This document shows, piece after piece, positions 14,453 through 29,768 of a DNA stretch of 64,000 bases. Within the stretch, counting starts at the first letter, position 1. The number at the start of each line of letters is the position of its first letter. This DNA is from an uncultured Candidatus Melainabacteria bacterium (GTDB taxonomy: Bacteria; Cyanobacteriota; Vampirovibrionia; Gastranaerophilales; Gastranaerophilaceae): positions 200,714 through 264,713 of the forward strand of contig CAKUZW010000001.1 in assembly GCA_934718135.1 (NCBI GenBank). The letters run 5' to 3'. Under the pieces are notes generated by a model that had not been told where the DNA came from, did no database searches, and saw only the letters and a list, made by a program, of their open reading frames with translations. The translations under genes and the position numbers were made by a program.

Positions 14453-15019
14453 ATGAAAGAAAATATATTTAAAACCCTAGGAGCAAGTAACCATTCAAGA
14501 CATGAAAGACAGGCGGAGGATTATTATGCAACCGACCCTATTGCTGCAAAATTATTATTAGAAGTTGAACCCGAGTTAAACAATATTTGGGAATGTGCGT
14601 GTGGGGAGGGGCATTTAGCACGTGTTTTCGATAAAGAAGGCAAATTAAGGAAATCAACCGACCTTATAAATAGAGGTTATGGAGATATTGAAGATTTTTT
14701 ATTAAATACAGAACCATATCATAATGGTGATATAGTTACGAATCCTCCGTATAAATTTGCTCAAGAATTTATTGAACAGGCATTGCGTAAGGTTGATACA
14801 GGTAGAAAAGTATGTATGTTCTTAAAAGTCTTATTTCTTGAAACTCAAAAACGCAAACAACTTTTTACGAAGTATCCACCCATATATATTTCAAGTTATC
14901 GTATAAACTGTGCAAAAAACGGTGATTTCAAGACTTACAAACAAAGTGCAATTGCTTATACTTGGCTTGTTTGGGTAAAAGGGTATCAAGGTGAAACTAT
15001 TATAAAGTGGATTAACTAA
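14453..15019 (+). CDS. small SAM-dependent (probably N6-adenine DNA) methyltransferase
   Basis: Motif I-like WECACGEGHL followed by motif IV DIVTNPPY. 188 aa with no target-recognition partner. Divergent from AbiH. Confidence 0.7.
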   Translation: MKENIFKTLGASNHSRHERQAEDYYATDPIAAKLLLEVEPELNNIWECACGEGHLARVFDKEGKLRKSTDLINRGYGDIEDFLLNTEPYHNGDIVTNPPYKFAQEFIEQALRKVDTGRKVCMFLKVLFLETQKRKQLFTKYPPIYISSYRINCAKNGDFKTYKQSAIAYTWLVWVKGYQGETIIKWIN

Positions 15020-15044
15020 TCTAATGATAGATATTATACAATTC

Positions 15045-16130
15045 CTATAGGATATTTTCATACTTTTCATTTAAAAAATATTTGCGTTTACGCCCTTCGC
15101 CTTCATAATGAAGAAAACCAGAATTTACCCATTCTGAAACTAATAAACGTGCAGTTCTTGGAGCGAATTTAAAAAATTCTGCTACATCCTTTGTTGATAT
15201 ATATTTTTGAGATTCAAACAAATTCAAAATTTGTCGCTGCTTTGAGTCGAGCTCTCTTAATACTTTTACTTCATCTTTTGTATTCTTATTTTCTTCTGCT
15301 TTTTTATAAACAGAATTAAACGCAATAGTCATACCATTGACAAAGTATTCAATCCATTTTGTAATATCTGATTCTGCACGTCCTAAGTAGTAGTTGTGCG
15401 ATTTACCAATAGTTATGGCATCATAGTAGCCTTGTAAATCTTTTGCATAATATTCTTCTAGAGAATATATCCCTTTTAGGTCGTACCCTCCTTTATGTAG
15501 AGCTAATGTAGTTAAAAGCCTTGCAGTTCTGCCATTACCATCAAAATATGGGTGAATGGTAACAAATTGATAATGGATAATTGCAGCTTTAATTGGTACA
15601 GGAATATCATTTGTTGTATTTATCCAATTTACAAATTCTTTCATTAACATTGGAACATCTTTAGCCTCTGGAGGCATATATACAATATTCCCAGATAAAG
15701 AATCTGTTATTACATTTTGCCCCTCTCGATATTCAGTTGGTTTTACCTTTTTACTTCCCCCACCTTCAACAAGTGCATGAATTTGCTTTATGTGTTTTTC
15801 TGTAATAGTTGCTTTTTCTTTAGTTAATTTTTCTATATAATCTAAGGCAATATAATATCCTTTGATTTCTTTTTCATCTCTAATTCTTCCTGTATTAGAA
15901 ATTACTTTGTTCGGATTCTTTAGTACATTATATACTTCTTCTTGAGAAAGCCTGTTTCCTTCTATTTGAGTAGAATAGTGGATAGTTGTCATTTTAGCCG
16001 TTTCTCTAAGGGAAGTAAGGAGTTTGGGATTTATTGGTAAACTTTTAATACCCTCTTTAACCCTTTCAATTTGAATAAGATTATTAGCGATTGAATTTGT
16101 AATCTCGTATTTGGGTTCAAATTTTGCCAT
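15045..16130 (-). CDS. Fic-family protein (AMPylase-type) with N-terminal inhibitory motif and C-terminal winged helix
   Basis: Fic motif HPYFDGNGRTARLL, inhibitory helix motif STQIEGN ((S/T)xxxE(G/N)), AAGGAG RBS. Confidence 0.9.
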   Translation of the reverse strand: MAKFEPKYEITNSIANNLIQIERVKEGIKSLPINPKLLTSLRETAKMTTIHYSTQIEGNRLSQEEVYNVLKNPNKVISNTGRIRDEKEIKGYYIALDYIEKLTKEKATITEKHIKQIHALVEGGGSKKVKPTEYREGQNVITDSLSGNIVYMPPEAKDVPMLMKEFVNWINTTNDIPVPIKAAIIHYQFVTIHPYFDGNGRTARLLTTLALHKGGYDLKGIYSLEEYYAKDLQGYYDAITIGKSHNYYLGRAESDITKWIEYFVNGMTIAFNSVYKKAEENKNTKDEVKVLRELDSKQRQILNLFESQKYISTKDVAEFFKFAPRTARLLVSEWVNSGFLHYEGEGRKRKYFLNEKYENIL

Positions 16131-16248
16131 ATTAGCTCCTTATTTTTGCCACTATTTTGCCACATTCTTGCCACAAAGTCAAGGTTATGCTTATTATAAT
16201 GATTAATTCAAAAAATATTTATGTTACTATTTTTATGAGGTATATGAT

Positions 16249-16578
16249 ATGGGTATAAATTTTAGTTTTAATTCTTTTGGGAACAGTACACAAAATAATG
16301 CAATTACAGTAAATTATAACGATATTGATAAACTTTTAGAACACTTAAAAGAAGTTAATATTCCAAGTTCTGATATTTCCGAATTAAAAACCGCAATAGA
16401 ACTAGATAAAAAAGAAACTTCAAAAATGGATTCAGTAGGAAGAAATGTTCAAAAATGGTGTTTGTCTATTTTTGAAAAAGTTACATCTGGTTTGATAGTA
16501 AATACAACTTTACCAATAGTAAAAGAAAAAATCGCATCTATTTTATCTACTATTTATCAGTTTCCAGTTCAATTCTAG
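16249..16578 (+). CDS. hypothetical protein
   Basis: GAGGT RBS. No domain recognised. Its 3' end overlaps the convergent gene by 29 nt. Confidence 0.45.
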   Translation: MGINFSFNSFGNSTQNNAITVNYNDIDKLLEHLKEVNIPSSDISELKTAIELDKKETSKMDSVGRNVQKWCLSIFEKVTSGLIVNTTLPIVKEKIASILSTIYQFPVQF

Positions 16579-17224
16579 TATTTTGAGTACTTCCATCATA
16601 TGAATTAAAATTGTTTTGAATGAACTTATTAATGACAGGATTTATTGTGTCTTGCTGTTCCTTAGTTGGATTTTTAAACAAATTTTCCAACTCTGCACTA
16701 TTAAATTTATCCTCCATTTCAAACATTAAATCTAATAGTTTTGACCTTATTGTACTTAATACTCCTACGATAAAAGACTTTCCTATAGGTACGTATGCAT
16801 TAGTTACAACATAACCATTCACAATTGGCTCTGATAAAATTTGATATAATTCTGGAGGAATTGTTTTATAAATTTCTTCTTGCTTTGCAAGTTCTATTAA
16901 CTCTGAAATTTTTTCTGGAAATGCACAGAGAGTCAATTTTTCTAAACCGTGCTTTTTTAAATGACGCGTAGCAAGAGTAACATTAGCTCTTCTGCATTTC
17001 ATATTTTCAATTGTTCCCATTAAGCTACCCTTATATATTCGATAGGCTGGAACTTCGTTTTTATATCCATTAAGTTCAGAATTTACAAATGTGGCTAACT
17101 CTTTATTTTTAAGCTTATGTGCCAATACTTTTAATTTAAGTAAAATATCATTTAAAGGATATGAGGTTGTTGTCAAACCAGACAAGATTTCATTGTATAT
17201 ATCGCTCATAGCATTATTATACAA
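16550..17224 (-). CDS. AbiTii-like domain protein
   Basis: N-terminal LNDILLKLKVLAHKLKNKELATFVNSELNGYK resembles the AbiTii N-terminal helical domain (from memory). Start is ambiguous: TTG at 17224 or ATG at 17209. Confidence 0.6.
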   Translation of the reverse strand: MYNNAMSDIYNEILSGLTTTSYPLNDILLKLKVLAHKLKNKELATFVNSELNGYKNEVPAYRIYKGSLMGTIENMKCRRANVTLATRHLKKHGLEKLTLCAFPEKISELIELAKQEEIYKTIPPELYQILSEPIVNGYVVTNAYVPIGKSFIVGVLSTIRSKLLDLMFEMEDKFNSAELENLFKNPTKEQQDTINPVINKFIQNNFNSYDGSTQNTRIELETDK

Positions 17225-17364
17225 CTAGGAATTGATATGTCTAAAATTATTTAATAAAAAATTAATTATTTAAAATAAGAGCTCTTTTATTCTTACACAC
17301 ACAAACTCATTATGGTGCATAAGTTTATTGTGAGCAGGACACAATATATGTATCCTAGTTAGCC

Positions 17365-17652
17365 TTATTTAGAACTGTTTTCATGACCCTCTATCGGAGT
17401 TTTAGGAACAAATTTTAATTCATAACCAAATAATTCTGCTATATCCATTAGTTCTGTTATCTTAAATGATGCCCTTGCTAATTTGTTCTGTAAATTAGAA
17501 TCAGATGCTGAACGACCATACCGTCTATTAAGCTCTCGAGCTAGACGGTACACAGATGTATTATTCTCATCTAAAAACGTCCTTACAAGCGTCCTAGCCT
17601 GCTCTTTTCGTTCTTCTGTTGCTACATATTTGGGTGTTTCTGGATTACTCAT
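17365..17652 (-). CDS. small HTH-type DNA-binding protein (paralog of 918-1151)
   Basis: AGGAGG RBS. YRLARELNRRYG...NKLARASFKITELMDIAELFGYELKFVPK. Confidence 0.65.
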   Translation of the reverse strand: MSNPETPKYVATEERKEQARTLVRTFLDENNTSVYRLARELNRRYGRSASDSNLQNKLARASFKITELMDIAELFGYELKFVPKTPIEGHENSSK

Positions 17653-17799
17653 TTTGTCCTCCTATTTCTAGTATAACATCATATTTTTATAATTCACGTA
17701 AACGTAAAGTTTTATGTTGACAATTCCTCAAGACCGTTGACATTCCTAATAATTAGATACATCATGTTAACGTAACATATATAGTAAAAGGAGGTCAAA

Positions 17800-18090
17800 A
17801 TGACAAACGTAATTTACACAAACACAAACTTGGAAGACGAAATTAAAACTATCAAAGCTCTTGAAGCAAAATTACAAGAGTTAAAGGAATTAAAAGAAGA
17901 AAAAGAGAATCTTGTGAAAAAAGTTTTAGACGATGCAGGGATTGAAGAATTACAGGTTGGAACATTCACAGTCAGATTTACAAATGTTGTAAGAAATGGT
18001 TTCAACACATCCGCTTTCAAAAAGAAGTATTTAGAACTTTATAACGCTTTTATCAAACAAAGTTCTTACCGAAAATTCAGTATTTCATAG
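17800..18090 (+). CDS. hypothetical coiled-coil protein
   Basis: AAGGAGG RBS, followed by a terminator. No domain recognised. Confidence 0.5.
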   Translation: MTNVIYTNTNLEDEIKTIKALEAKLQELKELKEEKENLVKKVLDDAGIEELQVGTFTVRFTNVVRNGFNTSAFKKKYLELYNAFIKQSSYRKFSIS

Positions 18091-18092
18091 TT

Positions 18093-18117
18093 AAGTGGGG
18101 TAAATCCCCACTTTTAA
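18093..18117 (+). terminator. rho-independent terminator
   Basis: aagtgggg-taaat-ccccactt followed by a T-rich run, directly after the stop at 18090. Confidence 0.6.
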
Positions 18118-18186
18118 TATTAAATCTTTGGACTCCGCTGATAATAAGAGTTTGGGCAGATAATCATAAAATAAGGAAGTTAAAAA

Positions 18187-18780
18187 ATGAGTAAAATATT
18201 TGCATATATAAGGGTTTCTACTCGTGAACAAAACGAAAATAGACAACTTGATTCCCTTACAGGGTTCAAGGTTGATGAAATTTTTATAGAAAAAGCCAGT
18301 GGAAAGAATTTTGTAGGACGTGAAAAATATCAGCAAATGAAATCAAAACTTAGAAAAGGAGATTTGTTAGTTGTTAAAAGTATAGATAGGTTTGGTCGAA
18401 ATTATTCTCAGATTTGTAAAGAATGGGAGTCTATAATCAATATGGGGGTAGATATTCAAGTTCTTGATATGCCAATTTTAAATACTCGTAATAATCAAAA
18501 TGGATTGACAGGAAGATTGATTACCGATATTGTTTTGAAACTACTTGGATATGTTGCAGAGCGTGAAAGAGATAATATTAAAGTACGTCAAGCAGAAGGA
18601 ATCGCAAGTGCAAAATCAAGAGGAGTTAAATTTGGAAGACCGAATGCAGAAATTCCAAAAGATTTTATAAGGGCTTATGAATTATATAAGAATGGATTGA
18701 TAAAAGTTAAGGATGTAATGTCTATGTGTAATATTGCTAAAAGTACATTTTATAAATACCAAAAGTCTATAAAAGTATAA
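18187..18780 (+). CDS. serine recombinase (resolvase/invertase family)
   Basis: N-terminal IFAYIRVSTREQNENRQ with catalytic Ser, SIDRFGRN, C-terminal HTH. Confidence 0.9.
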   Translation: MSKIFAYIRVSTREQNENRQLDSLTGFKVDEIFIEKASGKNFVGREKYQQMKSKLRKGDLLVVKSIDRFGRNYSQICKEWESIINMGVDIQVLDMPILNTRNNQNGLTGRLITDIVLKLLGYVAERERDNIKVRQAEGIASAKSRGVKFGRPNAEIPKDFIRAYELYKNGLIKVKDVMSMCNIAKSTFYKYQKSIKV

Positions 18781-18883
18781 GTGCTTTTCATGTACCTTTT
18801 CTTTATAAAATAACAACTAAATTTCATTGATTTTACGTTGTACAAAATTGTCCACAAAAAGTACACTTTTTATAGACTGAAAT

Positions 18884-19042
18884 TTAATTAACAATATTGT
18901 TCAAATCTTCTCGTACTACTGGAACAGTTTTATTTATGCTTTGATTGGATTTAAAAATTGAAAATATTGCTATTATCCCTACAATAATAACAATTGCAAA
19001 TACCATAGTTAGGAAGGATTTATTATCAAAATGATTATTCAT
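18884..19042 (-). CDS. possible 52-aa single-TM protein
   Basis: Found by hand: MNNHFDNKSFLTMVFAIVIIVGIIAIFSIFKSNQ.... It starts 11 nt after the Mrr-like stop and has only a weak RBS. Below the ORF-track size cut-off. Confidence 0.3.
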   Translation of the reverse strand: MNNHFDNKSFLTMVFAIVIIVGIIAIFSIFKSNQSINKTVPVVREDLNNIVN

Positions 19043-19053
19043 ACTACGAACCC

Positions 19054-19797
19054 TTATATATCTAACCTTCTACCATGTTTCCCATTTGAAACATAATCCT
19101 CTTTATTTTGAGAATAGTTTATTTGTTGACTCATTCTTATTATGTCGTCAAGGTTTAGTACTTTAAAATTCGGTTTATTGCTTATAAAATCTGCTCCTGC
19201 TTGTGTAATGCCAGATGATGCAACTAATATTACTTCATTTGCATTAAAATCATCTTTACAACCCCATAATGCCCTAATTGGTTCTGGAGGTACAGGGTTT
19301 CTATAATGTTTGCATTGCACAATTCCTCTATATCCTTCTTGTTCAAGAATAATATCCACTCCACCGTCGCCAGAACCTTTTGTAACCGTAGCTTTATAAC
19401 CATTTAGAATAAAAATTTTTGCAACTTCTTCTTCAAATTGCCAACCGTCTAAATTCCACCACCATGAATTTTCAGCCCAGTAACTTGAATTACGTTTTAA
19501 TTGATTTTGAGAAAATTGTCTGTAAGGACTGTCATTAAACAGATGACTCCAATATACGCAAAAAGCAATAAAACTAATAACGCAACTCCAACCAAACACA
19601 GAAAACGGTAATATGTTTGTAGTCCCTAAATAGTAAAGGAAGTAGTTAAAACTACCGACAAAACCAACGGATAATATACATTCTTTCCATAATCCATGTT
19701 TATTTACTTCTATTAAAAATTTTGTTGCACCTAGAACACAGGCTACAAATAATAGCACTAAATTATATAAATCTCTGTTATCACTTTTTCTTGACAT
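19054..19797 (-). CDS. membrane-anchored Mrr-like restriction endonuclease domain protein
   Basis: N-terminal TM helices, then FEEEVAKIFILNGYKATVTKGSGDGGVDIILE...IVQCKHY (Mrr catalytic core D...QCK). AAGGTGA RBS. Ends in the tail GRRLDI. Confidence 0.8.
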   Translation of the reverse strand: MSRKSDNRDLYNLVLLFVACVLGATKFLIEVNKHGLWKECILSVGFVGSFNYFLYYLGTTNILPFSVFGWSCVISFIAFCVYWSHLFNDSPYRQFSQNQLKRNSSYWAENSWWWNLDGWQFEEEVAKIFILNGYKATVTKGSGDGGVDIILEQEGYRGIVQCKHYRNPVPPEPIRALWGCKDDFNANEVILVASSGITQAGADFISNKPNFKVLNLDDIIRMSQQINYSQNKEDYVSNGKHGRRLDI

Positions 19798-19909
19798 TTT
19801 TCACCTTCTTATATATCTATCTTTCCGCCTATTTTATAGGCTCTATCATAATATTTGTATTGTTGTATGCTCAATTATCAATTATTACTGTTTAGCGATA
19901 ATACAACTC

Positions 19910-20641
19910 CTAAACTCTTATAGTAAGCAATACCGAGTTATCCTCTAATACTTCTTCCTGTTCCAATTTCATAGAAGGATTTTTTGCAATTTTTGATTTA
20001 ATATTCTTACAAATATTAGATTGAACAACTCGTTCATATTCAGATTCGATTTTGGCAAAGTATCTGTGAATTTCTTTTAAATCTGCGTATCCTGTAGCTT
20101 TAAATTCGTAAGCCCCATTTTTACTTGACTTTAATTCAATTAAACAATTCGGAATTTCAAAACTTAATTTTCCTCTTTCTTCTATTGCTAAAATTTTTAG
20201 GTTCTTTAAAGTTTGTTTTAATACAGTCTTATCTGTATAAATAGTAGGAAAATTATATACAGGAGTTTTTGTTTCAGAAATACTATCAAAAAAACAAGGT
20301 CTGCCTGCTACATGTGCAATGGCATTAGTAAAATTATCCAATACCTTTTTATCTATATCAGCAGAAACAGAAGCTACCAAATTATTTTGTTCATAAATCC
20401 AATAAATAGGATATTCTTTAGTAATATGAGTTTTTACATATCTATATAGCATTGTATATGTTTCAGACCAATCATAACCAGCTTTTTTAATATATTTTTT
20501 CAATTCTGTTTCATCTTCAAAATTAGTATATTTTCTAATTTCTTGCGACCTCATCCATTCATCAAATTTTTTAGCTCCCATTTTTCTGCGTTGTTGAGCC
20601 ATCCATAATTCACCATTCATTAAATCCTGTTTTATAGACAT
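19910..20641 (-). CDS. hypothetical protein with DUF1257 (Ycf35)-like C-terminal half
   Basis: AAGGAG RBS. Residues ~130-243 (FPTIYTDKTVLKQTLKNL...EYERVVQS...EDNSVLLTIRV) follow the Ycf35/DUF1257 pattern as I remember it. The N-terminal 130 aa are unassigned. Confidence 0.55.
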   Translation of the reverse strand: MSIKQDLMNGELWMAQQRRKMGAKKFDEWMRSQEIRKYTNFEDETELKKYIKKAGYDWSETYTMLYRYVKTHITKEYPIYWIYEQNNLVASVSADIDKKVLDNFTNAIAHVAGRPCFFDSISETKTPVYNFPTIYTDKTVLKQTLKNLKILAIEERGKLSFEIPNCLIELKSSKNGAYEFKATGYADLKEIHRYFAKIESEYERVVQSNICKNIKSKIAKNPSMKLEQEEVLEDNSVLLTIRV

Positions 20642-20654
20642 TATCTATACTCCT

Positions 20655-21608
20655 TTACCAATCAATTTTTCTCCCAATTTTATTTTTAGGTTTTGATGGG
20701 AATATTAACCTATCTTGAATCTCTATCATTTGATGCGGCATTAATTCAAATTCTGCAACAAAGGATTCTATATCATAATAATATTTTCCGTTATTACGTT
20801 CTTGTAATAATTTATCTGCTTTTTCATCATCAAAACCGTCTATTGTAAGCAGGTCTTTTTTATTACAAGATTCAAGTTTTATTTTTTTATTTTTTGAAGA
20901 AATATGACTCTCTTTATTGTTTTTGGAGATATTTTGTAATGTTGTGCTTTCAAAATTATCATCAACAGAAGTCTTTATTGAAAAAATTTTATCTGCTATT
21001 TGTTCCTGTAAATTAAGATATTTTTTTTCTTTAACAATCTCAAGTGCTAAATTGATAAATTCTTCTGCGGATTTATAATCCCCTGCATTATAATCCGTAA
21101 GTGCATTTTTATAATAACTTTCTGCTTTATGGTATTCGTATGCTCTATCTTCTTTTTCTATTGCTTCTTGTTTATCTACAAATTTTATGTCTAAGCCAGT
21201 GGTTTTTGTTAACCATTTTTGAATAGTAGTTAAATCTGTGAAAGATATATTTATAGAAGAAAGGGCTCTACGTTTCAAGTTCCATCTTTTCATAATATCT
21301 TTTTGAATTTTATTGTCTGCATTTTGAAGTAAATAATATATAACGTCAAAAGTATAATCTATTTGTTTGTGTATCTTAAGTGTTATAATATATTTTTCGT
21401 GATAAGAACCATAAAAATCATAACTTTTATTTGTATAATATATTATATTATTTTGTTGTTTTATTATTGATAATAGCTCATTAGGGTCTATTAGTTTTTC
21501 TTTTTTATATTTTTTTATCTCTTTTATGTAGTAATCCTTAGTTTTCAAATTGAAAATACTTGAGAAAAAATATAATGTTAAAACTATAATTGTTTCTATA
21601 ATGTCCAT
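20655..21608 (-). CDS. membrane-tethered protein with a TPR-like repeat and a C-terminal ComEA-like helix-hairpin-helix
   Basis: N-terminal TM (IIETIIVLTLYFFSSIF) followed by a K-rich stretch. TPR-like AESYYKNALTDYNAGDYKSAEEFINLALEI. HhH-like DLLTIDGFDDEKADKLLQERNNG...FELMPHQMIEIQDRL. Ends in the tail GRKIDW. Confidence 0.6.
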   Translation of the reverse strand: MDIIETIIVLTLYFFSSIFNLKTKDYYIKEIKKYKKEKLIDPNELLSIIKQQNNIIYYTNKSYDFYGSYHEKYIITLKIHKQIDYTFDVIYYLLQNADNKIQKDIMKRWNLKRRALSSINISFTDLTTIQKWLTKTTGLDIKFVDKQEAIEKEDRAYEYHKAESYYKNALTDYNAGDYKSAEEFINLALEIVKEKKYLNLQEQIADKIFSIKTSVDDNFESTTLQNISKNNKESHISSKNKKIKLESCNKKDLLTIDGFDDEKADKLLQERNNGKYYYDIESFVAEFELMPHQMIEIQDRLIFPSKPKNKIGRKIDW

Positions 21609-21627
21609 ATCTAACTGTTATAACCCT

Positions 21628-23334
21628 CTAAAAATCAATAGTTCTACCACCACGACTACGTTTTATTGTTTCAGTAGTTTTCTTTGCTTTTTCTTTCTTT
21701 TTCGCTATTTCTTCCGTTTCCTCTGGAGTATAATTATAGTTTTCATCATGTGCGGTAGCGGATACGGCTCTTTCGTTAGCCCATTCTCTGATAGCTAAAA
21801 TCTGTCCAGATTGAGTTGTTGAAAGAGGAACTGTATTTCTAATAACTTTAAATAAATCCTCTGTTTTAAGCGTTCTATTTTCGGCAAAGGCTTCAAATAA
21901 TGCAGATATTACAACTTGTTCTATTTCAGAACCTCCAAATCCTTCTGTAGCATCTGCAAGTTTATTTAATAAATCATCAGTAATTGCAAAATCTTTAGAC
22001 TTACTTCCTTTTAGTCTCTTTTCTAGATGTAATTTAAAAATAATTTTACGTTCATTTATAGTTGGTAAATCAACAAAAAATATTTCATCAAATCTTCCTT
22101 TTCTTAACATCTCAGCGGGTAATCTTGAAATGTTGTTTGCGGTCGCAATAACAAATACCGGTTTTGTTTTCTCATTCATCCAAGTAAGGAATGTTCCAAA
22201 AACTCTGCTTGAAGTTCCTCCATCCATTTCACCTCCCGAATTGCCACCAAACCCTTTTTCAATTTCATCAATCCAAAGTATTGAAGGTGCAACCGCTTCT
22301 GCTGTTTGAATTGCTTTACGCATGTTTTCTTCACTACTTCCTACCAACCCTGAAAAAATTTTGCCTATATCAAGTCTTAATAACGGTAGTTGCCACATTG
22401 CACTCATCGCTTTAGCCGTCATTGATTTCCCACAACCTGCCACACCTGTTATCAATACACCCTTTGGAGATGGCAAATTATAATCTTTTTGTGCTATACC
22501 AAGCCACGAATTATTACGTTTTGCCAGCCACTTTTTCATATTTTCTAAGCCACCAACATCATCAATGTTTACGGTAGTATTTATAAATTCAAGTATGCCT
22601 GTTTTCTTGATAACTTGGCATTTTTCTTCAAGGATAATATCTAATTCATTAACGGTTAATTGTCCTTTTGTAACCATAGCATGTGCAAAGGCATTTTCAG
22701 CCTCTTGTAATGTTAAACCTTGAGCGGCTTTACATAATAATTCTTTTCCGTTTTCATCAAGGTCTATTAAGATACCAGAGCCCTCATTCATAGCAAGCAT
22801 TTCATTCAAAAGATTTTTAAGTTCTTCAAGTGTTGGTAAATCAAAATCAACAACGGTAATATCTTTTTGCAAGTCATTAGGCAATACAAGTGTCGGAGCA
22901 ATGATTACAACATTTTTTGAACACTCTGCATTTTTTAAAGAACCTGCAACATCTCTTATTTTTCTAATAAATCCGTAATCTGCATTTCTTCCTTGAATCC
23001 CAAGTAGGGGATGAACATCTTTTAATATCATTATTGCAGGTTTGTTATAACTATCAATATAATTCAATGCTTCTGTAGGTTTTTCGGCATTGTTAATATT
23101 AATGTGTTCTTGACCTGTTGTAAGTAATTTATTTAAGCCTTCTGTCGCACTCCATATAAAAACATCTCTTTTACTTTTAATAGCTTTAGTATTCTTAGCT
23201 ATTTTGGTAATTAGCTCAATAACTCTTATTTCTTCCCATGTAGGTATATATATAAAACTAAATCTTGCTTTAAATAGGTTTGTCAAATATTGTTCAGTCT
23301 TTTTTATTCCTTCTAATACAATAGTTTTTGCCAT
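21628..23334 (-). CDS. Ycf46-type AAA+ ATPase
   Basis: N-terminal FSFIYIPTWEEIRV...FIWSATEGL. AAA core NLPSPKGVLITGVAGCGKSMTAKAMSAMWQLPLLRLDIGKIFSGLVGSSE, Walker B ILWIDEIEK, RKGRFDE. Very close in pattern to cyanobacterial/plastid Ycf46. K/E-rich linker then the tail GGRTIDF. Confidence 0.88.
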   Translation of the reverse strand: MAKTIVLEGIKKTEQYLTNLFKARFSFIYIPTWEEIRVIELITKIAKNTKAIKSKRDVFIWSATEGLNKLLTTGQEHININNAEKPTEALNYIDSYNKPAIMILKDVHPLLGIQGRNADYGFIRKIRDVAGSLKNAECSKNVVIIAPTLVLPNDLQKDITVVDFDLPTLEELKNLLNEMLAMNEGSGILIDLDENGKELLCKAAQGLTLQEAENAFAHAMVTKGQLTVNELDIILEEKCQVIKKTGILEFINTTVNIDDVGGLENMKKWLAKRNNSWLGIAQKDYNLPSPKGVLITGVAGCGKSMTAKAMSAMWQLPLLRLDIGKIFSGLVGSSEENMRKAIQTAEAVAPSILWIDEIEKGFGGNSGGEMDGGTSSRVFGTFLTWMNEKTKPVFVIATANNISRLPAEMLRKGRFDEIFFVDLPTINERKIIFKLHLEKRLKGSKSKDFAITDDLLNKLADATEGFGGSEIEQVVISALFEAFAENRTLKTEDLFKVIRNTVPLSTTQSGQILAIREWANERAVSATAHDENYNYTPEETEEIAKKKEKAKKTTETIKRSRGGRTIDF

Positions 23335-23337
23335 ATA

Positions 23338-23916
23338 TCACCCCACTAACTTTGCTAATTCTTTAAAATTGCCCATACCTGTCATAATAATTTTGTTTTC
23401 TGATGTTATACGGACTTCAATTTTGTTTTTGTATTCTGAAATTACAGATTTACTATATCTATCAGTTAAAAAATAATAATTTTGATTACTTGAACCAACC
23501 CAAGCTCTTGAGTAATCTGTCTTTTCTTGTTCATATTCGCCATCTATCAAAATATCAACATATTTAATAAGTGTTTGAAAATCTTTGTTTTCTTTAAGAT
23601 TAGAATACTTATATCCAGTAAAAAGAATTACAGACAGCCCAATTTCTTGAACTGTCTTTGAAATTTCTGTTACGGCTTGTATTTGTTCTGTAGGTTCACC
23701 ACCTAACCAAGTAATACCTTCAATCCTATCTTTATAAGATTTAATTATTTCAATAAATTCACAAATTTTATAAGAAGTACCACCATCAAAGTTCCACATG
23801 TGAGAATTAGCACAACCTTCACATCTTATAGAACATCCTTGAACCCAAATTGCGAATCTAGCTCCAACACCTTCAACCTTTGTTATAGGAATATATGAAT
23901 TTATCCTAATGTTCAT
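23338..23916 (-). CDS. NrdG-like radical SAM activase (4Fe-4S single-cluster domain)
   Basis: GVGARFAIWVQGCSIRCEGCANSHMW (CxxxCxxC) and WLGGEPTEQ. Start set to the ATG at 23916 (GAGGA upstream) instead of 23934. Its stop lies 3 nt before the AAA+ start. Confidence 0.85.
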   Translation of the reverse strand: MNIRINSYIPITKVEGVGARFAIWVQGCSIRCEGCANSHMWNFDGGTSYKICEFIEIIKSYKDRIEGITWLGGEPTEQIQAVTEISKTVQEIGLSVILFTGYKYSNLKENKDFQTLIKYVDILIDGEYEQEKTDYSRAWVGSSNQNYYFLTDRYSKSVISEYKNKIEVRITSENKIIMTGMGNFKELAKLVG

Positions 23917-24118
23917 TTTGTTGATATTCCTCATTTGAAGTATATAGATACTGTTCTGTTTCGTTATACTCTTTTGTAAATTCTGATTTTATAGTTTTAG
24001 CACCTGTTAAATTTTCAACTTCTTTTATGTAATTAAGGCAAGATTTACCTTTGATTCCAACTGTTTCGGATTCAATTTTACCATTTGGATATACCCTGAT
24101 TTTAATTTGTTTGCTCAT
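23906..24118 (-). CDS. DUF2997-like mini-protein
   Basis: MSKQIKIRVYPNGKIESETVGIKGKSCLNYIKEVENLTGAK fits the remembered DUF2997 pattern (I.I.PDG.V..EV.G..G.sC...T..le..lG). GAGGT RBS before the ATG at 24118. Overlaps the rSAM start by 11 nt. Confidence 0.6.
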   Translation of the reverse strand: MSKQIKIRVYPNGKIESETVGIKGKSCLNYIKEVENLTGAKTIKSEFTKEYNETEQYLYTSNEEYQQNEH

Positions 24119-24308
24119 CAATAACCTCAATATCAAGTTGTTTTATTAGATTCGGAATTTGTTCCAGTCTGTCATTTTGTATTATATCTACTCTTCTACT
24201 AAAATGTCTTAAAGTCTTACTTTTGGGATTTTTAGCTATTAATTGACCAAACATATTTGCTAAAATTTTCTTTGGTAAAATATTTCTGTCTTTGTCCGTA
24301 TCAAACAC
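24102..24308 (-). CDS. possible 68-aa leader ORF of the operon
   Basis: GTG start with AAGTGGA upstream. Its 3' end overlaps the DUF2997 start by 17 nt. No domain recognised, so it may not be translated. Confidence 0.3.
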   Translation of the reverse strand: MFDTDKDRNILPKKILANMFGQLIAKNPKSKTLRHFSRRVDIIQNDRLEQIPNLIKQLDIEVIDEQTN

Positions 24309-24367
24309 TGTTAATTTCCACTTCCATTCTTTTTACATCATAATATCTATTTTGATGAATAAGTGAG

Positions 24368-24410
24368 AAAAACCGTATGTAATCTGGATTTAGATACATA
24401 CGGTTTTTTC
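24368..24410. terminator. strong symmetric hairpin (bidirectional terminator-like)
   Basis: aaaaaccgtatgt ... acatacggttttt, a 13-bp stem with A-run and T-run flanks. Lies between the small recombinase gene and the AAA+ operon. Confidence 0.55.
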
Positions 24411-24528
24411 TTAATTTTTATTTATACATCGTTTTTATTTCTAGATATTTATGTTATTATCTCTATAGATGAGTTATACATCCGTATAGATATTCTGTTG
24501 CATTATGAAATGGTGCAAAGTTGCAATT

Positions 24529-25092
24529 TTACAGTTCAAAGTTTTTATATGATTCGTCCAGTTCTTCTTGTGCGATGCCAATATAACGCATTGTTATTGA
24601 GGGCGAACTGTGATTAAAAATTTTCTGCAACAATGCTACATCATGAAATTTTTTGTAATGGTGATAGCCAAAACTCTTACGTCCGCTATGTGTTCCAAAA
24701 TTCCCTTGTAGTCCTACTTTTAAACAAGCATCATTAATAAATCTGTAAACTTGCGACCTATCTAATCTGCAATGTTTCTTACCAACAAAAAGTGGTTCAT
24801 CACTTGTAATAGAGTATGTTTTATCTCTTTCAACAAGGTATTTTTTAATAAGACTTTTCAACTTATTATTTAGTGGGAAACGTTTATACTTACCCGTTTT
24901 CTTTTCTATAACCTCAACATATTGTTTGTTTCTGACGTCTTCTACATTTAATCCAAGTACATCAGATATTCTAAGACCGCTGTTGCAAGTGAAGACAAAT
25001 ATTAACTGATTCCGCAGACTATGTTTTGCTAGATACTGTTCAACAGCCTCAATATCTCTCTTGTCTTTTATTGGTTCTACTAAGTTCTTCAT
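24529..25092 (-). CDS. small (187 aa) tyrosine recombinase
   Basis: GLRISDVLGLNVEDV (Arg I), HSGRKSFG (HxxR), SPSITMRYIG (catalytic Tyr). Similar in size to FimB/FimE-type recombinases and lacks an N-terminal arm-binding domain. Confidence 0.85.
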   Translation of the reverse strand: MKNLVEPIKDKRDIEAVEQYLAKHSLRNQLIFVFTCNSGLRISDVLGLNVEDVRNKQYVEVIEKKTGKYKRFPLNNKLKSLIKKYLVERDKTYSITSDEPLFVGKKHCRLDRSQVYRFINDACLKVGLQGNFGTHSGRKSFGYHHYKKFHDVALLQKIFNHSSPSITMRYIGIAQEELDESYKNFEL

Positions 25093-25434
25093 CTCTTTTA
25101 CACCCTTTCTGCTACATATTCCTCGTTTTGTAGCAAATTAGAATGTAACTTATTATTTTAGTTATATAAATAAATTAGCCTAAAAGAACATAATTTTAAA
25201 AAGGCAAAAGACCTATATAAAGCTAAAACCTAGAGCACTGTACAGATAAACTGTAGGTAGAAATCTCTAGGTTACACATATATATTATTTACTATAATTC
25301 GCTATTTGTCAAGTATTGAATCAATGTTAATTATTCATTTTAAGCCCGCTATGAGGCTCGTAAAAAGGTGTTTCATATTTAATGTAATAAATGGTAACCC
25401 CCAATTCAATGATTTTAGAAAAATCGGAGTTAAA

Positions 25435-26508
25435 TTAAGAATTTCTTCCTTCAATAACTTTTCTGTATAATTCAACATACAATTTATTTCTAGAATCAGT
25501 CATTTGTAACTTTTTTAAAACCCGTGATAAGGAATTTTTTTGCGAACCTTTATACATCCCAAGCAACCTTGTTGCTGAGATTTTATTAACCTTAATTAAT
25601 TCTGCTAATAATTTTTCATGTTTACTTAAATGAACCTCTTGGGTAATAGGTTTATTAAAAAATACACGATTTCTTAATTCATTTGTATAAAACCTTTCTA
25701 ATGTATTATATAAATTCCCTGTGTTCAGCAAATCCAACAATGTAGCAAGTCTTAAATCATGGCTATTTGTTGTATTAAAAATAAAGTCTGAAATATTTTT
25801 TAACTTTTTTGAATAAGCATACTGTAACTCACATCTTAATATATGAAGATTCTGTAAAGATAAATAAGGTGGAGAATTATGGTAAGCTCCTACTGGCAAT
25901 ATAATTCTATCTTTAGGTGATAATGGGCTTGGTAAAAATATATCATTAAGAGAAGCTTTGTCTCTGAGTTCTTGGACTTTATCATAGAATAGAATTACTT
26001 TGTCTCCTACAATGTTTTTATTCGTAGAATCTTTCTTTAGCGTGCTTAGAATAAGACTTGTATTTGTCGAATTAGAAGTATTTTGAATAGGATTAATCCC
26101 TGCTCTATATTTCCTCTTTTTTAGCATTTCAATATAACGAGGAACAGTGCCTTGTGTATAAAAATTCTTTGTAAGGTGAATTTTACTTATAATAAAACTA
26201 TTGTAAATGTTTTCTGACAAGTCATAAAATCCGAGATTTTCAAACAACTCAAATAAGGTTTGTTCTTCTGGCATAATAAGGTTAGTATCGGTTTGACCTT
26301 CATTTGTCCTATATCTTGTAGGTGTAAATTCAAGGCTTATTCTTTGTCTGCTTGTATTAAGCTTATATGCGTTATCTGGATAATGTGAAGACATAACATT
26401 TTCTATCTTTACAAGGAATGCAGCCCTATCGTTAATATTAAAATCCGTATCATCTATATAAAAACGTAACTTATCAATTAATAAGTCATTGAACAAATTA
26501 CCAACCAT
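25435..26508 (-). CDS. hypothetical protein (island maintenance or replication function possible)
   Basis: AAGGGGGG RBS. Overlaps the upstream gene by 11 nt. No domain confidently recognised. Confidence 0.6.
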   Translation of the reverse strand: MVGNLFNDLLIDKLRFYIDDTDFNINDRAAFLVKIENVMSSHYPDNAYKLNTSRQRISLEFTPTRYRTNEGQTDTNLIMPEEQTLFELFENLGFYDLSENIYNSFIISKIHLTKNFYTQGTVPRYIEMLKKRKYRAGINPIQNTSNSTNTSLILSTLKKDSTNKNIVGDKVILFYDKVQELRDKASLNDIFLPSPLSPKDRIILPVGAYHNSPPYLSLQNLHILRCELQYAYSKKLKNISDFIFNTTNSHDLRLATLLDLLNTGNLYNTLERFYTNELRNRVFFNKPITQEVHLSKHEKLLAELIKVNKISATRLLGMYKGSQKNSLSRVLKKLQMTDSRNKLYVELYRKVIEGRNS

Positions 26509-27880
26509 AATCCCCCCTTAAACCATTATAAAATCTAGCAGTTGCACAAAATTTATCTTGGTTTAAAATTTTATCTAAATTCTCTAAATCCTTGTAAATA
26601 TCATTTTTTACTCTGTAATCATCTTTTTTGAAACATTTATCAATTAATATTTTTCTTTTGCTGTTAGGTAACTTTGATAATAAAATAATTACTGCTGTTT
26701 TTAAAGCTGTATTCCTTTCTCCCTTGTAGCGAGTAATAAATTTGCTGTAAGTTGTATAATGTGATTTATCGAACTTGATAAGACTACTATTTTGTACGAT
26801 TGCTCGAAAATGAAAACTGATAATAAGGGAGATAAAAAATCCTCCTTTTTCAACAAAATTACGTAAATAAATTTTATTCAAAGGGTTACAATCTAAAGAG
26901 AGAATACGACTTATAGTTCTCATACCTGTTACATATAAAATAAGCTCAATAGAATTAGAAGTTTTGCCATGTTTTACATGCAGCTCACTCTCAGATTTTC
27001 TATCCAATACCTTGTCAAACTCGCTTTTAACTTTTTTATAACCTTCATTTTTAAAAGCATCAGCTAAGATAAAATTATTTTTTACTCTAAATAGAATAGT
27101 TTGCTTTTTGTCATTTACTGTTATGACGATATTCTTCTTATTGGAAGGAATAAATTGTGAGATTTCTTCAAATAATTCTTCATATAAAACATCTGTTTCA
27201 AATTCTACGGACATTTTCATTCCAGTAAGAATATTCAAACTGATAAAATTATGAAACTCGGACAGATTAAGTGTAATCGTTTCATTAGTATAGGTATTTA
27301 CATATTCAGTAAGTAAAATTAACATTACAAAATGCCAAAAAGCATTTGCATAAAATGGAATTTCATTTTCATCTTTAACATGTTCAAGGAATACCTTGCT
27401 ATTGAAAGTAAAGACAAGATTCCTATTTTTTATATTAGCATTGTTAATAGGAACAGACTTTCTGCCTCTACCACTTGCAATATAACTCAATTTTACTATT
27501 TGTCTTATTAAATCAGAAGAAGCAAATTTAATAAAATTATCAATGTACGCTGCAGGATAGTTGAAGAATTGGGAATTATATTCCCTTAATAATTGCCCAT
27601 ATTCTTCTATATTAGTTATTCTGTACCTATTTATACTCCCTAACCAGTCATTCAGTCCCCTATTACAGTTATTTAATAGATTATTATCTCTTATAGCCCT
27701 AGATAATACTTTTCTTATATTATGGGCTGATAAACAAGTAGATAACATAATATACTTCTCTGATAATCTTTTTATATCCATAAAATTTCCTTTCTCTTTA
27801 ATTTTCCTATTTTCCTTTTTTATTGTATATACTCCTTTTGCTGTTATATTGCGGTTCTTAGGTGTTTTCTTGTACTGCAT
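26498..27880 (-). CDS. hypothetical protein
   Basis: AAGGGGA RBS. In the same operon direction as int/xis. No domain recognised. Confidence 0.6.
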   Translation of the reverse strand: MQYKKTPKNRNITAKGVYTIKKENRKIKEKGNFMDIKRLSEKYIMLSTCLSAHNIRKVLSRAIRDNNLLNNCNRGLNDWLGSINRYRITNIEEYGQLLREYNSQFFNYPAAYIDNFIKFASSDLIRQIVKLSYIASGRGRKSVPINNANIKNRNLVFTFNSKVFLEHVKDENEIPFYANAFWHFVMLILLTEYVNTYTNETITLNLSEFHNFISLNILTGMKMSVEFETDVLYEELFEEISQFIPSNKKNIVITVNDKKQTILFRVKNNFILADAFKNEGYKKVKSEFDKVLDRKSESELHVKHGKTSNSIELILYVTGMRTISRILSLDCNPLNKIYLRNFVEKGGFFISLIISFHFRAIVQNSSLIKFDKSHYTTYSKFITRYKGERNTALKTAVIILLSKLPNSKRKILIDKCFKKDDYRVKNDIYKDLENLDKILNQDKFCATARFYNGLRGDYGW

Positions 27881-27936
27881 GTATCCCCTTTATTGAAATA
27901 TCTTATTTGTATTTACTCTGGTATATGCCTAGTCAT

Positions 27937-28923
27937 TTAATACTCATTCAGTAACTTAAAAGCATTTTCCATACTGGCACTTGGATTATGTGTATATCGC
28001 TGAGTTGTTTTTAAATCTGCATGACCTAGTATTTTTTGTATAGTTACAATGTCAACTCCAGCCTCATTAAGTCGAGATGCAGTTGTATGCCTTAGCTTAT
28101 GAAACGTTATTGGCGGAATTCCACTACGTCTCACCGCTCTTTTGAAACTTGTTTTTACGTCTTTATATCTAGTACCAGTAACAGGGGATGTAAAAACATA
28201 ATCACCTAACCTTGGAAGTTTCAATAATTCTTCTTTAAGAGTTTTGGTTAATCTAAGCTTACGAGGTTTGTTATTCTTAGTATTTAAGGCAATAAGATAA
28301 TCTTCTTCAAAGAATACGTCTTGCCATTTTAAACTCAGTATTTCATTTTGCCTCATGCCAGTATGCAAGGCTGTTATTATAATTGCTTTCATCGTAGGAT
28401 TGCATACTGCAAGTAATCTTACTTCTTCATCCTTTGTCAAATAACGCTCTGAAGGATTTTCTATACGTAGCTTTTTCAGTGTCGAACAAGGATTTACCGC
28501 TATACGTTTATTTTCAATGGCTAATGAAAATAAACGGCGGATATTGTCAACTTCTCGATTTATGCTAGAATTTTTTATTTTACCTAAACGAGAGTTAATA
28601 TATTTTTCAATATCTGAAACGGTTATCTGCTCTACATCTTTATTTCCTACTAACTTATAAAACTTATCTATAACATAATCAAATTCTTCTGGTCTGGTAT
28701 AGTGAGCCATTGCATATTCTCTGAAATCTGCAATTAAGTCTTCTAAGTAATAGACCTGTTTCTTTGTTATGTCGTAACCAGTTTTTATAAGTTCTGCCTT
28801 ATGTACAGTTTCAAGATAAGCAACTTCACTTTTTAGAAGCCCTTTAAAAGTTTTACAATATCTTTTGCCTTTGTACATAAAGTTGTAACCATAATAACCT
28901 GATTTGTGTTTATATACACTCAT
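27937..28923 (-). CDS. int: tyrosine integrase (phage-integrase family with N-terminal arm-type DNA-binding domain)
   Basis: MSVYKHKSGYYGYNFMYKGKRYCKTF arm-binding-like N-terminus. C-terminal HKLRHTTASRL...ILGHADLKTTQRYTH. Confidence 0.92.
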   Translation of the reverse strand: MSVYKHKSGYYGYNFMYKGKRYCKTFKGLLKSEVAYLETVHKAELIKTGYDITKKQVYYLEDLIADFREYAMAHYTRPEEFDYVIDKFYKLVGNKDVEQITVSDIEKYINSRLGKIKNSSINREVDNIRRLFSLAIENKRIAVNPCSTLKKLRIENPSERYLTKDEEVRLLAVCNPTMKAIIITALHTGMRQNEILSLKWQDVFFEEDYLIALNTKNNKPRKLRLTKTLKEELLKLPRLGDYVFTSPVTGTRYKDVKTSFKRAVRRSGIPPITFHKLRHTTASRLNEAGVDIVTIQKILGHADLKTTQRYTHNPSASMENAFKLLNEY

Positions 28924-28925
28924 TA

Positions 28926-29108
28926 TTACCCTCTTTCTACTGTTGGAGAAAAAATATATGCCAAAAGAGCATCCGCATTAAATAAATATTTTCTTCCAAC
29001 TCTTCCACAAACTTCAGCAGGGAATTTTCCTCCCTTGGCTTGTTTTTGTAATGTTCTGACATCCAATTTTAGTATTTTTGCTGCTTCCAATGTGCTTATT
29101 ATCTCCAT
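28926..29108 (-). CDS. excisionase-like (MerR/AlpA-type) HTH protein
   Basis: Start moved to the ATG at 29108, which is preceded by AAAGGAGGT. MEIISTLEAAKILKLDVRTLQKQAKGGKFPA. Stop is 2 nt before the integrase start. Confidence 0.7.
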   Translation of the reverse strand: MEIISTLEAAKILKLDVRTLQKQAKGGKFPAEVCGRVGRKYLFNADALLAYIFSPTVERG

Positions 29109-29182
29109 TTTACCTCCTTTTCTTTTGAAAATAATTTTCACTTAACTGAAATATAAAACAGAAGGGTTTACTTTTCAAGGTC

Positions 29183-29275
29183 TAACGAAAATTTCGCCGC
29201 AGTATTGTTACAATTCTTAATGTTTTAGCGAAAATTTTGTTTAAATGAATTTTTATTGTATAGTTATTTTAGCGA
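29183..29275. promoter_or_regulatory. candidate operator repeats in the xis/XRE divergent region
   Basis: taacgaaaatttcg (29183-29196), ttagcgaaaatttt (29225-29238), ttagcga (29269-29275). Confidence 0.3.
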
Positions 29276-29282
29276 GGTATAT

Positions 29283-29714
29283 ATGCGAAAATTAGACAAC
29301 GATAAAGATATAAGCCAAAATATTAGACAATTACAGGAAGAAGTAAAAACGATAATTAGAAGATTTGGAGCTATTGTCGCTAAAACAAGAAAAGATAAAG
29401 GAATGAAATTACAGGAACTATCTCAGAAATCTGGAGTTAGTATAGGGGTAATTTCAGATTTGGAAAATGGGAAAGACAAAATTCCAAACCTTTATACTTT
29501 AATCGCATTAGCTAAGACACTTGAAATAAAGAATGATGAGTTTTTGCAAACTATTTTTGGAGAAATCATACATAAAGACCCAAATAAAAAAGCCCCTAGT
29601 GATATGTTGGTAGAGGCTTTAGTTGCTTATGGTGTGCCTTCTGATACTGCCGCTAATATTTTAGTGGGTATTGACCTGTCTTTTGGAAAACATCCTATTA
29701 AAAAAGAAAACTAA
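29283..29714 (+). CDS. XRE-family HTH regulator (cI-like repressor of the island)
   Basis: MKLQELSQKSGVSIGVISDLENGK HTH. Start set to the ATG at 29283 after GAGGT. Divergent from xis/int. Confidence 0.8.
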   Translation: MRKLDNDKDISQNIRQLQEEVKTIIRRFGAIVAKTRKDKGMKLQELSQKSGVSIGVISDLENGKDKIPNLYTLIALAKTLEIKNDEFLQTIFGEIIHKDPNKKAPSDMLVEALVAYGVPSDTAANILVGIDLSFGKHPIKKEN

Positions 29715-29737
29715 CAGATTTTAACGAACAAATGTTC

Positions 29738-29759: not shown

Positions 29760-29768
29760 GACATTAAA

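Follow-up and report, generated by a model that had tools for sequence, protein, structure and literature searches.

Background

Ycf46, an AAA+ ATPase, and Ycf35, of the DUF1257 family, are conserved reading frames of cyanobacteria and algal plastids, both encoded in plastid genomes, whose function has gone unexplained for decades. A cluster of DUF2997, ycf35 and the ferredoxin gene fed7 has been described in the cyanobacterial literature, and the ycf46 operon of S. elongatus is induced by severe oxidative stress and by (p)ppGpp; these vertically inherited, stress-induced loci name the family without explaining its function. Here we analyze an operon that carries relatives of these genes on an integrative island of an uncultured Candidatus Melainabacteria bacterium, within a window of 64,000 nucleotides (assembly GCA_934718135.1, contig CAKUZW010000001.1, positions 200,714 to 264,713). 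It belongs to a conserved five-gene module, here expanded and carried on an island, in which the ATPase and a variable set of accessory proteins end in a shared C-terminal tail. Both the tail and the module, seen at 43 loci, are new relative to an initial annotation of the operon, which was made from the window's sequence.

The ATPase of the operon is homologous to cyanobacterial Ycf46 over its full length, with 42–46% identity across residues ~10–534, the N-terminal half included, which upholds its original assignment as a Ycf46-type protein. The cyanobacterial clusters further resemble the module in having an associated iron-sulphur (Fe-S) protein, there that of fed7, and a related ATPase tail, ..QRMEF. 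In addition, a DUF1257 gene lies directly downstream of cyanobacterial ycf46, and this adjacency, together with the published DUF2997-ycf35-fed7 cluster, agrees with the earlier statement that the three families tend to be neighbors in cyanobacteria. The sampled cyanobacterial ycf46 loci differ from the module in having no adjacent activase-like radical S-adenosylmethionine (SAM) gene, no tail-bearing helix-hairpin-helix (HhH) proteins and no Gly-Gly in the ATPase tail.

A conserved five-gene module

A search for homologs of the ATPase among 1.84 billion representative proteins yielded a large Ycf46-type family (4672 proteins at E ≤ 1e-30), some of whose members have the tail. Eighty genomic loci around family members were retrieved and their open reading frames (ORFs) scanned with phmmer and hidden Markov models. 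In the closest clade a recurrent set emerged that consists of an AAA+ ATPase with an RGGRxhD-hydrophobic tail, a DUF2997 protein, a homolog of the 243-residue protein of the operon, a radical SAM protein and one to seven additional tailed proteins. All five components are present at 43 loci, within 3.6–8 kb and in a gene order that is shuffled between lineages, so the genes that the initial annotation grouped together are syntenic elsewhere. The same set was recovered by AAA+-anchored sampling and by radical-SAM-anchored sampling in metagenomes.

In the window, the five components are encoded on the minus strand by the genes for a DUF2997 small protein of ~70 residues (23906..24118), a radical SAM protein of 192–198 residues that resembles the activases of glycyl-radical enzymes (23338..23934, with an alternative start at 23916), the 568-residue Ycf46-type ATPase (21628..23334), a 317-residue accessory protein with transmembrane, TPR and HhH parts (20655..21608) and the 243-residue protein, which is a divergent DUF1257-like one (19910..20641). 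A second accessory protein, a 247-residue membrane-anchored Mrr nuclease (19054..19797, minus strand), has been added to this set.

Full loci occur in Bacillota, Actinomycetota, Bacteroidota, Gastranaerophilales and possibly archaea. Among their hosts are Paenibacillus, Neobacillus, Aneurinibacillus, Clostridium (among them C. beijerinckii and C. botulinum), Priestia megaterium, Ruminococcus, Micromonospora, Dactylosporangium, Phycicoccus, Microbacterium, Tenacibaculum, other Gastranaerophilales and some archaeal metagenome-assembled genomes (MAGs), in addition to megaplasmids of Bacillus cereus and B. thuringiensis, where the module is flanked by insertion sequence (IS) elements. The full module is also present on predicted viral or proviral contigs. 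On one B. cereus megaplasmid of 487 kb (NZ_CP106676.1; loci L159/L246) two IS4-family (DDE) transposase genes bracket the module, which adjoins TetR and MFS genes and may constitute a composite-transposon-like unit; the RefSeq annotation gives the B. cereus module genes generic names. The archaeal-labelled MAGs that carry the module are those of a Candidatus Methanomethylophilaceae member (L016), a Methanosphaera (L025) and a further one (L026). The components of L016 are near-identical to those of two Gastranaerophilales contigs (L013, L017), probably with the same upstream gene, and five EPSP-synthase matches among the flanking genes are probably the matching upstream ORFs of this group. L016 may therefore be mis-binned, and the archaeal hosts are not used here as support for inter-domain transfer.

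Two other arrangements of related genes were seen among the sampled loci. A second subtype, in Planctomycetota and Verrucomicrobiota (L039, L042, L049, L055, L063, L085, L087), has an AAA+ protein ending in ..RRK[IM]E[FL], followed in order by DUF1257 and DUF2997, and no tail-bearing HhH proteins; several of these loci have a weakly radical-SAM-like protein of ~290 residues upstream, a zinc-ribbon protein of ~330 residues (MQCPSCxFxNxPG) downstream, or both. A third subtype (L044, L180, L189) consists of a larger radical SAM protein (~340 residues or fused), DUF2997, DUF1257 and a tail-less AAA+ protein (..SRFG or ..SRFS). Certain phage and satellite contexts, namely those of the Streptococcus satellite Javan368, cluster-O mycobacteriophages and Agrobacterium phage JP1, were considered as instances of the same system and rejected, as the neighbors there include no DUF2997, DUF1257 or radical SAM gene. 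Full-length Ycf46-like ATPases are encoded by Javan368 (L009, 36% identity) and by Mycobacterium phage Catdawg (gp97; L010, 32%), the latter with a tail-like C-terminus, ..VRVLDL.

A C-terminal tail shared by the ATPase and accessory proteins

The AAA+ and accessory proteins of the module end in the motif [G/E]-R-x-[ILV]-D-hydrophobic-COOH. In the operon, the ATPase terminates in RGGRTIDF (codons ~21631-21654), the 317-residue protein in IGRKIDW (~20658-20678) and the Mrr nuclease in HGRRLDI (~19057-19077), all on the minus strand and each preceded by a short stretch outside any domain. Among ORFs of at least 60 codons in the whole window, the strict motif is found in exactly these three. Across the sampled loci it ends 52 of 395 ORFs beside the AAA+ gene, versus 2 of 723 in the remainder of those loci and none of 2517 in loci of other subfamilies. 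The residue counts are R38 G37 G40 R40 x [ILV]40 D36 F29 for the ATPase tails (n = 43) and [G33/E11] R51 x [ILV]52 D50 [L/F/I] for the accessory tails (n = 55). When 38 accessory proteins with a mean identity of 12% are aligned, the arginine and aspartate of the tail are the sole invariant columns.

Close relatives illustrate how the tail persists while the remainder of the accessory proteins changes. An 80%-identical relative has the same tails although its accessory proteins, one of them a 540-residue TPR protein, are otherwise very different. At two further loci (L242, L244) a hypervariable region downstream of the ATPase gene encodes three to five accessory proteins (TPR, transmembrane proteins of unknown type, Mrr), all of which end in G-R-x-h-D-hydrophobic, and there the DUF1257, DUF2997 and radical SAM proteins are never tailed.

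The tail is also linked to gene content. Across all sampled loci of the Ycf46 family, a DUF1257 or DUF2997 gene lies within 6 kb of the ATPase gene at 37 of 39 loci whose AAA+ protein has a tail-like end and at 5 of 19 with a tail-less one (Fisher p = 1e-7, uncorrected for phylogeny). Among the sampled loci, Gly-Gly before the tail arginine of the ATPase is limited to the subtype that has the activase-like radical SAM enzyme. In the AlphaFold2 (AF2) monomer model of the ATPase the last 20 residues have a predicted local distance difference test score (pLDDT) below 35; docking of the tail in cis on the ATPase was considered and set aside, as the tail is disordered in this model.

Components of the module

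The ATPase matches Pfam AAA (E = 3.3e-29) and AAA_lid_3, with a full-length match to phrog_8638 (E = 6.5e-143), and its homologs bear source names such as "SpoVK/Ycf46/Vps4" and "AAA domain-containing protein ycf46". The Walker A (GVAGCGKS) and Walker B (WIDEIEK) motifs are intact and invariant in family alignments. In its C-terminal half the nearest similarity is to D2 of VAT/p97/Cdc48 (E = 7.8e-86). Its AF2 model aligns over ~570 columns with the D1-D2 portions of p97, Cdc48, Drg1 and Rix7, at template-modelling (TM) scores of 0.57–0.60. Since the N-terminal half has no P-loop in its sequence, it is a degenerate D1; a K/E-rich linker is present. The model has the two-domain build of p97/Cdc48, in which the D1-like half is degenerate and the D2-like ATPase active.

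The radical SAM protein matches Fer4_12 (E = 1.7e-35) and Radical_SAM (E = 4.5e-7). Its best NCBIfam model is that of the activase NrdG (TIGR02491, E = 7.9e-36), with 123.3 bits, below the cut-off of 126.1; against the other NrdG models it scores far under their cut-offs. Within its neighborhood this gene is an orphan NrdG-like one, as first described: neither the operon nor any of the 43 compact loci has an NrdD-like gene. Among solved structures, its homologs are confined to pyruvate formate-lyase activases (PFL-AE, E = 1.4e-19). The CxxxCxxC (GCSIRCEGC) and GGEP motifs are invariant in the clade alignment, and the clade has invariant motifs of its own, SRPWVGSxNQ and NGMG, together with a C-terminal extension. 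A relationship to prokaryotic viperin (pVip; E = 1.6e-5) was rejected, the NCBIfam viperin score being 17.9 bits against a cut-off of 180, which indicates generic radical SAM similarity.

The DUF2997 assignment holds, with a match to Pfam PF11211 at 50.2 bits versus a gathering threshold of 24.1 (E = 2.3e-13). Residues G13, G24 and C27 are invariant across the family, and a member is present in all 43 full loci.

The 243-residue protein had been called DUF1257-like. Direct detection fails, as there is no Pfam match at E ≤ 0.1, DUF1257 (PF06868) included, but remote homology is recovered by profile-profile comparison. Its subgroup aligns by hhalign with the DUF1257-matching subgroup over the C-terminal 82 residues at 96% probability (E = 3e-9), 7 of 24 aligned positional equivalents match DUF1257 (best E = 2e-19), and the NCBI name of one homolog (P0391) is DUF1257 domain-containing protein. 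On these sequence profiles, the protein is a divergent DUF1257. Its AF2 model (pLDDT 89) has two beta-alpha-beta4-alpha repeats, that is, an internal duplication, and the best fold matches in the PDB are TATA-binding proteins, at TM-scores of 0.26–0.39; a sequence search of DUF1257 against the PDB returned nothing meaningful.

The 317-residue accessory protein consists of one predicted N-terminal transmembrane helix, a K-rich cytoplasmic flank, a degenerate TPR region and an HhH module of the ComEA type. On this copy the TPR and HhH assignments made initially are marginal (TPR_2, E = 0.031; HHH_6, E = 0.073; comEA, E = 0.039), but HhH is established at the level of the family, 31 of 38 members of which match HHH_3 (best E = 2e-19); for this reason we take the protein to represent the fifth core component in this operon. 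Its C-terminal 70 residues align with the 540-residue TPR homolog (L002). Most accessory proteins have one to three N-terminal transmembrane helices, with charge flanks that would place the HhH and the tail in the cytoplasm, and the N-terminal regions vary (YxeC-like, TPR, GYF). At one locus (L023:4305-9347) seven tandem paralogs of ~230 residues lie upstream of the radical SAM gene, each with a transmembrane helix, a variable region, HhH and an ER-N-h-D-h tail.

The Mrr nuclease has two to three transmembrane helices and a clear Mrr_cat domain (73.6 bits versus 21, E = 1.8e-20) with a D...QCK core (GVDII...VQCK). Tailed versions are present in three relatives (L002, L242, L244) and were not found in the other sampled lineages. 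Two membrane-anchored DNA-binding or DNA-cutting proteins had been seen as joined to the operon; the HhH protein is indeed core, but the Mrr nuclease is an add-on specific to Gastranaerophilales and not a conserved component.

The operon and its island

All ORFs of the operon are present on the minus strand, overlapping or closely spaced, in the tight arrangement originally reported. The mechanical start of the DUF2997 ORF is 24136; because its homologs begin MSKQIK, 24118 is the better start. A gap of 112 nucleotides separates the Mrr gene from that of the 243-residue protein. Downstream of the nuclease lies a 52-residue ORF with one transmembrane helix (18884..19042, minus strand), the last before a terminator-like stem-loop at 18850..18877 on the same strand, the probable end of the operon. 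Given this position of the stem-loop, the transcription unit probably runs from ~24200 to 18850 and takes in both the Mrr gene and the 52-residue ORF. Membership of the latter in the system is uncertain: it is present in the 99%-identical loci L005-L008 and a 109-residue ORF takes its place in the 80%-identical lineage, and it has no family match in profile searches and no C-terminal tail.

Upstream, the strong hairpin noted previously at 24368..24410 on the minus strand is well supported (−19.4 kcal/mol, z = −7.0, with none of 200 shuffles folding equally well). A U-run follows it 3' on that strand, so that it probably terminates the gene for a small integrase of 187 residues that lies upstream, and it marks the upstream boundary of the operon. 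Between the hairpin and the DUF2997 gene, the 68-residue ORF that had been listed as possibly preceding the operon (24102..24308, minus strand) exists as a reading frame but probably lies outside the system, and may not be a gene. It is not conserved, being dissimilar to the upstream ORF of the 80%-identical relatives, with different upstream ORFs in others, and a promoter-like site (24210-24181) falls within it; profile searches of Pfam, PADLOC, NCBIfam and PHROG returned no family match.

The operon is carried by an integrative island of 16.6 kb (13192..29855). A perfect 45-nucleotide direct repeat bounds it, with one copy at 13192-13236 and the other, which forms the 3' part of a tRNA-Pro gene, at 29811-29855; an integrase is encoded inside the island (27937-28923), as expected of a tRNA-gene island. 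Its cargo comprises AbiH, Fic, AbiTii, DUF6471, a resolvase, the operon, a small (187 residues, 24529..25092, minus strand; Phage_integrase, E = 1.5e-27) and a full-size tyrosine recombinase and two genes of unknown type, in accord with the mobile island with AbiH/AbiTii/Fic genes and recombinases first proposed. Close homologs of the ATPase (80–99% identity) belong to Gastranaerophilales of the human gut, which are Melainabacteria, the non-photosynthetic sister group of cyanobacteria. Related islands occupy several different chromosomal sites in these relatives and hold to the order small integrase, operon, resolvase; in L001-L008, L242 and L244 the small tyrosine recombinase is the next gene upstream of the operon.

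A second perfect direct repeat, of 22 nucleotides (ATTACATAATAATTACATAATG), lies near each end of the island at a different offset (13353-13374 and 29739-29760) and may represent recombinase arm sites. Two overlapping minus-strand genes, 25435-26508 (357 residues) and 26498-27880 (460 residues), adjoin the island integrase; neither has a Pfam match, the pair is found again in the related islands L004-L008, L242 and L244, and it may serve replication or excision of the element.

Possible function: conflict, stress or DNA traffic

Docking through C-terminal tails is established for p97 and archaeal Cdc48, where an HbYX motif engages the 20S proteasome and the p97 peptide engages PUB/PUL cofactors. 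By analogy, the tail of the module would be a docking tag that brings the ATPase and its tailed clients or effectors to a common receptor. The receptor would most likely be the DUF1257/DUF2997 pair, because throughout the Ycf46 family a tail on the ATPase is associated with these genes. The complex would sit on the cytoplasmic side of the membrane, with its HhH domains binding DNA, and the p97-like ATPase would draw on ATP hydrolysis to remodel, release or activate those proteins that bear the tag. The radical SAM enzyme would supply a control or chemical step, and may abstract hydrogen from the Gly-Gly in the tail of the ATPase. In the present island the recruited Mrr nuclease would cleave DNA, excluding incoming foreign DNA in a defence or abortive-infection response on behalf of the island's host. 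To this reading, a tail-docked, membrane-proximal, DNA-bound p97-like machine with an Mrr output on this island, we assign a probability of about 0.5.

The chemistry could be more specific, with the radical SAM enzyme removing the C-alpha hydrogen from one or more glycines in the tail and thereby producing a protein radical, backbone cleavage or a covalent S-C-alpha link to the invariant DUF2997 cysteine. We consider this quite unlikely. About 40% of the accessory tails have no glycine, so a glycine-directed radical step cannot cover all tagged proteins, and with the RVxG[FY] motif also absent, a classical glycyl-radical mechanism is improbable for all tails. Were the tail-glycine chemistry real, it would amount to a radical-based system of protein tagging or switching that arms a p97-like machine and DNA-targeting effectors, and would provide the first biochemical function for Ycf46, Ycf35 and DUF2997 of cyanobacteria and plastids.

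Besides the glycine-free tails, several observations weigh against the docking machine with a defence output. The choice of receptor follows from the co-occurrence of genes, in counts that are confounded by phylogeny; the membrane topology of the accessory proteins comes from a simple hydropathy and charge rule; and the TBP-like fold of DUF1257, given the low TM-scores of the model, is a weak lead only. As for genomic context, the 150 proteins flanking 25 low-GC loci are mostly housekeeping (the commonest being EPSP synthase, TPR, GNAT, MFS and response regulators, with other transporters and regulators besides), with only a handful of PADLOC matches among them, and no enrichment of defence islands was seen outside Gastranaerophilales at these 25 loci, which were compared with no formal background control. 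In C. beijerinckii the module occupies one chromosomal site in more than 20 assemblies, between sugar phosphotransferase and chemotaxis/molybdenum-cofactor genes, and only in Gastranaerophilales is a nuclease or other obvious effector joined to the module. Flanks of this kind, the few PADLOC matches and the fixed C. beijerinckii site leave a general defence role unsupported. The context on this island is different: three Abi-type genes (AbiH, Fic, AbiTii) beside the operon indicate a setting of conflict, and in Gastranaerophilales relatives the accessory region is hypervariable. The seven tandem accessory paralogs at one locus, and the copies of the full module on predicted viral contigs and on IS-flanked megaplasmids, also speak for conflict. 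A conflict role, such as the abortive-infection module hypothesised in the initial annotation, is therefore plausible for the version on this island, which has recruited a nuclease. For the module in general such a role is not established, and a general association with defence islands is not supported.

The alternative that survives best is that the module is a stress or housekeeping system of protein remodelling, turned on by stress as the cyanobacterial ycf46 operon is, in which the ATPase extracts or remodels membrane-tethered DNA-binding proteins, for instance so as to alter how the nucleoid is attached to the membrane in dormancy, sporulation or growth arrest, and the Mrr nuclease is an opportunistic passenger that copied the tail. 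The housekeeping-dominated flanks and the fixed C. beijerinckii position fit such a role, as do the vertical conservation of the Ycf46 and DUF1257 core in cyanobacteria and its presence in plastid genomes, the induction of the S. elongatus operon by oxidative stress and (p)ppGpp, and the many spore-formers among the hosts. A housekeeping function sits poorly, however, with the patchy distribution across phyla and the shuffled gene order, with copies on IS-flanked megaplasmids, predicted viral contigs and the present integrative island, and with expanded, hypervariable accessory proteins and a recruited nuclease, traits typical of conflict systems. On balance we view this alternative as possible but doubtful.

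The module could instead serve the mobile element itself, or DNA traffic more broadly, if the ComEA-like proteins captured or tethered DNA at the membrane, for instance in uptake, transfer or segregation of the island, a plasmid or a prophage, and the ATPase recycled them. The HhH is of the ComEA type, the module is found on islands, megaplasmids and proviral contigs, and each of its Gastranaerophilales copies is accompanied by a small tyrosine recombinase and a resolvase; yet the HhH is predicted to be cytoplasmic, unlike that of ComEA, many copies sit in plain chromosomal contexts without mobility genes, and an Mrr nuclease suits the destruction of DNA more than its transfer. Classical Cdc48-type AAA+ proteins, moreover, act on proteins and not on DNA. 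A role in DNA traffic thus appears very unlikely. Finally, that the radical SAM gene is an ordinary nrdG next to unrelated genes by chance is scarcely credible and is effectively refuted by synteny: NrdG is its best family match, only 3 bits below the curated cut-off, and its phrog_626 match carries an anaerobic ribonucleotide reductase annotation, but no NrdD accompanies it in the operon or in the 43 loci, none of 63 phage NrdG loci has an AAA+ or DUF2997 gene, its clade has distinctive motifs and a C-terminal extension and is present in aerobic genera (Bacillus, Priestia, Micromonospora, Microbacterium), and its linkage to the other four genes holds despite their shuffled order.

Ycf46 and Ycf35, together with DUF2997, are here tied to a wider module, for which the docking-machine reading offers a concrete, testable hypothesis, namely that a C-terminal peptide tag assembles a p97-like ATPase with its partners. 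The version with radical SAM and HhH proteins is available in tractable bacteria (the B. cereus megaplasmids, Priestia megaterium, Clostridium beijerinckii and C. botulinum), and the tail provides a rule for finding effectors, which would be any adjoining ORF with a GRxhD-hydrophobic end. If the island version is immune in function, it would embody a new design principle, the recruitment of effectors by a shared tail combined with an activase of the glycyl-radical type that has no glycyl-radical enzyme.

Comparison with known systems

Searches of all operon proteins with PADLOC v2 and NCBIfam gave only generic matches (IetA, pVip, TRIP13) and no named system, and PADLOC v2 has no model for the DUF2997 or DUF1257 proteins. 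The gene combination is not described in the full-text literature that was accessible, in which subscription journals are incompletely covered. Within these bounds, the original statement that no named system has this composition still stands.

The nearest defence-related likeness is to IetAS and the related SGI1 sgiAT, in which an ATPase and an effector are paired on mobile elements. The AAA+ domain matches IetA models (PADLOC, E = 1e-22; NF042959, E = 4e-17) and the match is limited to residues 284-548. IetA, part of a defence or toxin-antitoxin pair of AAA+ ATPase and S8 protease, has no D1-like half, DUF1257/DUF2997 genes, radical SAM partner or shared tail. Identity with IetAS was accordingly rejected, the match being confined to the ATPase domain and no IetS-type protease having been found in the operon by Pfam or PADLOC. 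The membrane-anchored nuclease shares the Mrr_cat domain and the D...QxK core with Mrr type IV restriction enzymes and differs from them in its membrane anchor, in having no N-terminal winged-helix DNA-recognition domain and in bearing the module tail; presumably it is controlled by the module and does not act alone. The accessory proteins resemble ComEA in placing an HHH_3 module behind an N-terminal membrane anchor, and depart from it in the predicted cytoplasmic location of the HhH, the variable N-termini, the tail and the linkage to an ATPase and a radical SAM gene.

The radical SAM protein has the minimal radical SAM fold of NrdG and PflA, with CxxxCxxC and GGE, but no linked glycyl-radical enzyme, a sub-cut-off NrdG score and an extra C-terminal region. 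The ATPase, for its part, is like p97, Cdc48 and VAT in its predicted D1-D2 build, in the similarity of its D2 and in a disordered C-terminal peptide, and unlike p97 in its degenerate D1 without a P-loop, its different tail sequence and its lack of an N-terminal double-psi barrel. At the level of the system, no proteasome or ubiquitin-like partner is linked to the module, and the presumed clients or effectors, unlike those of p97, bear the ATPase's own tail. Taken together, these comparisons indicate that the module is apparently an undescribed kind of system, built on known but uncharacterised families.

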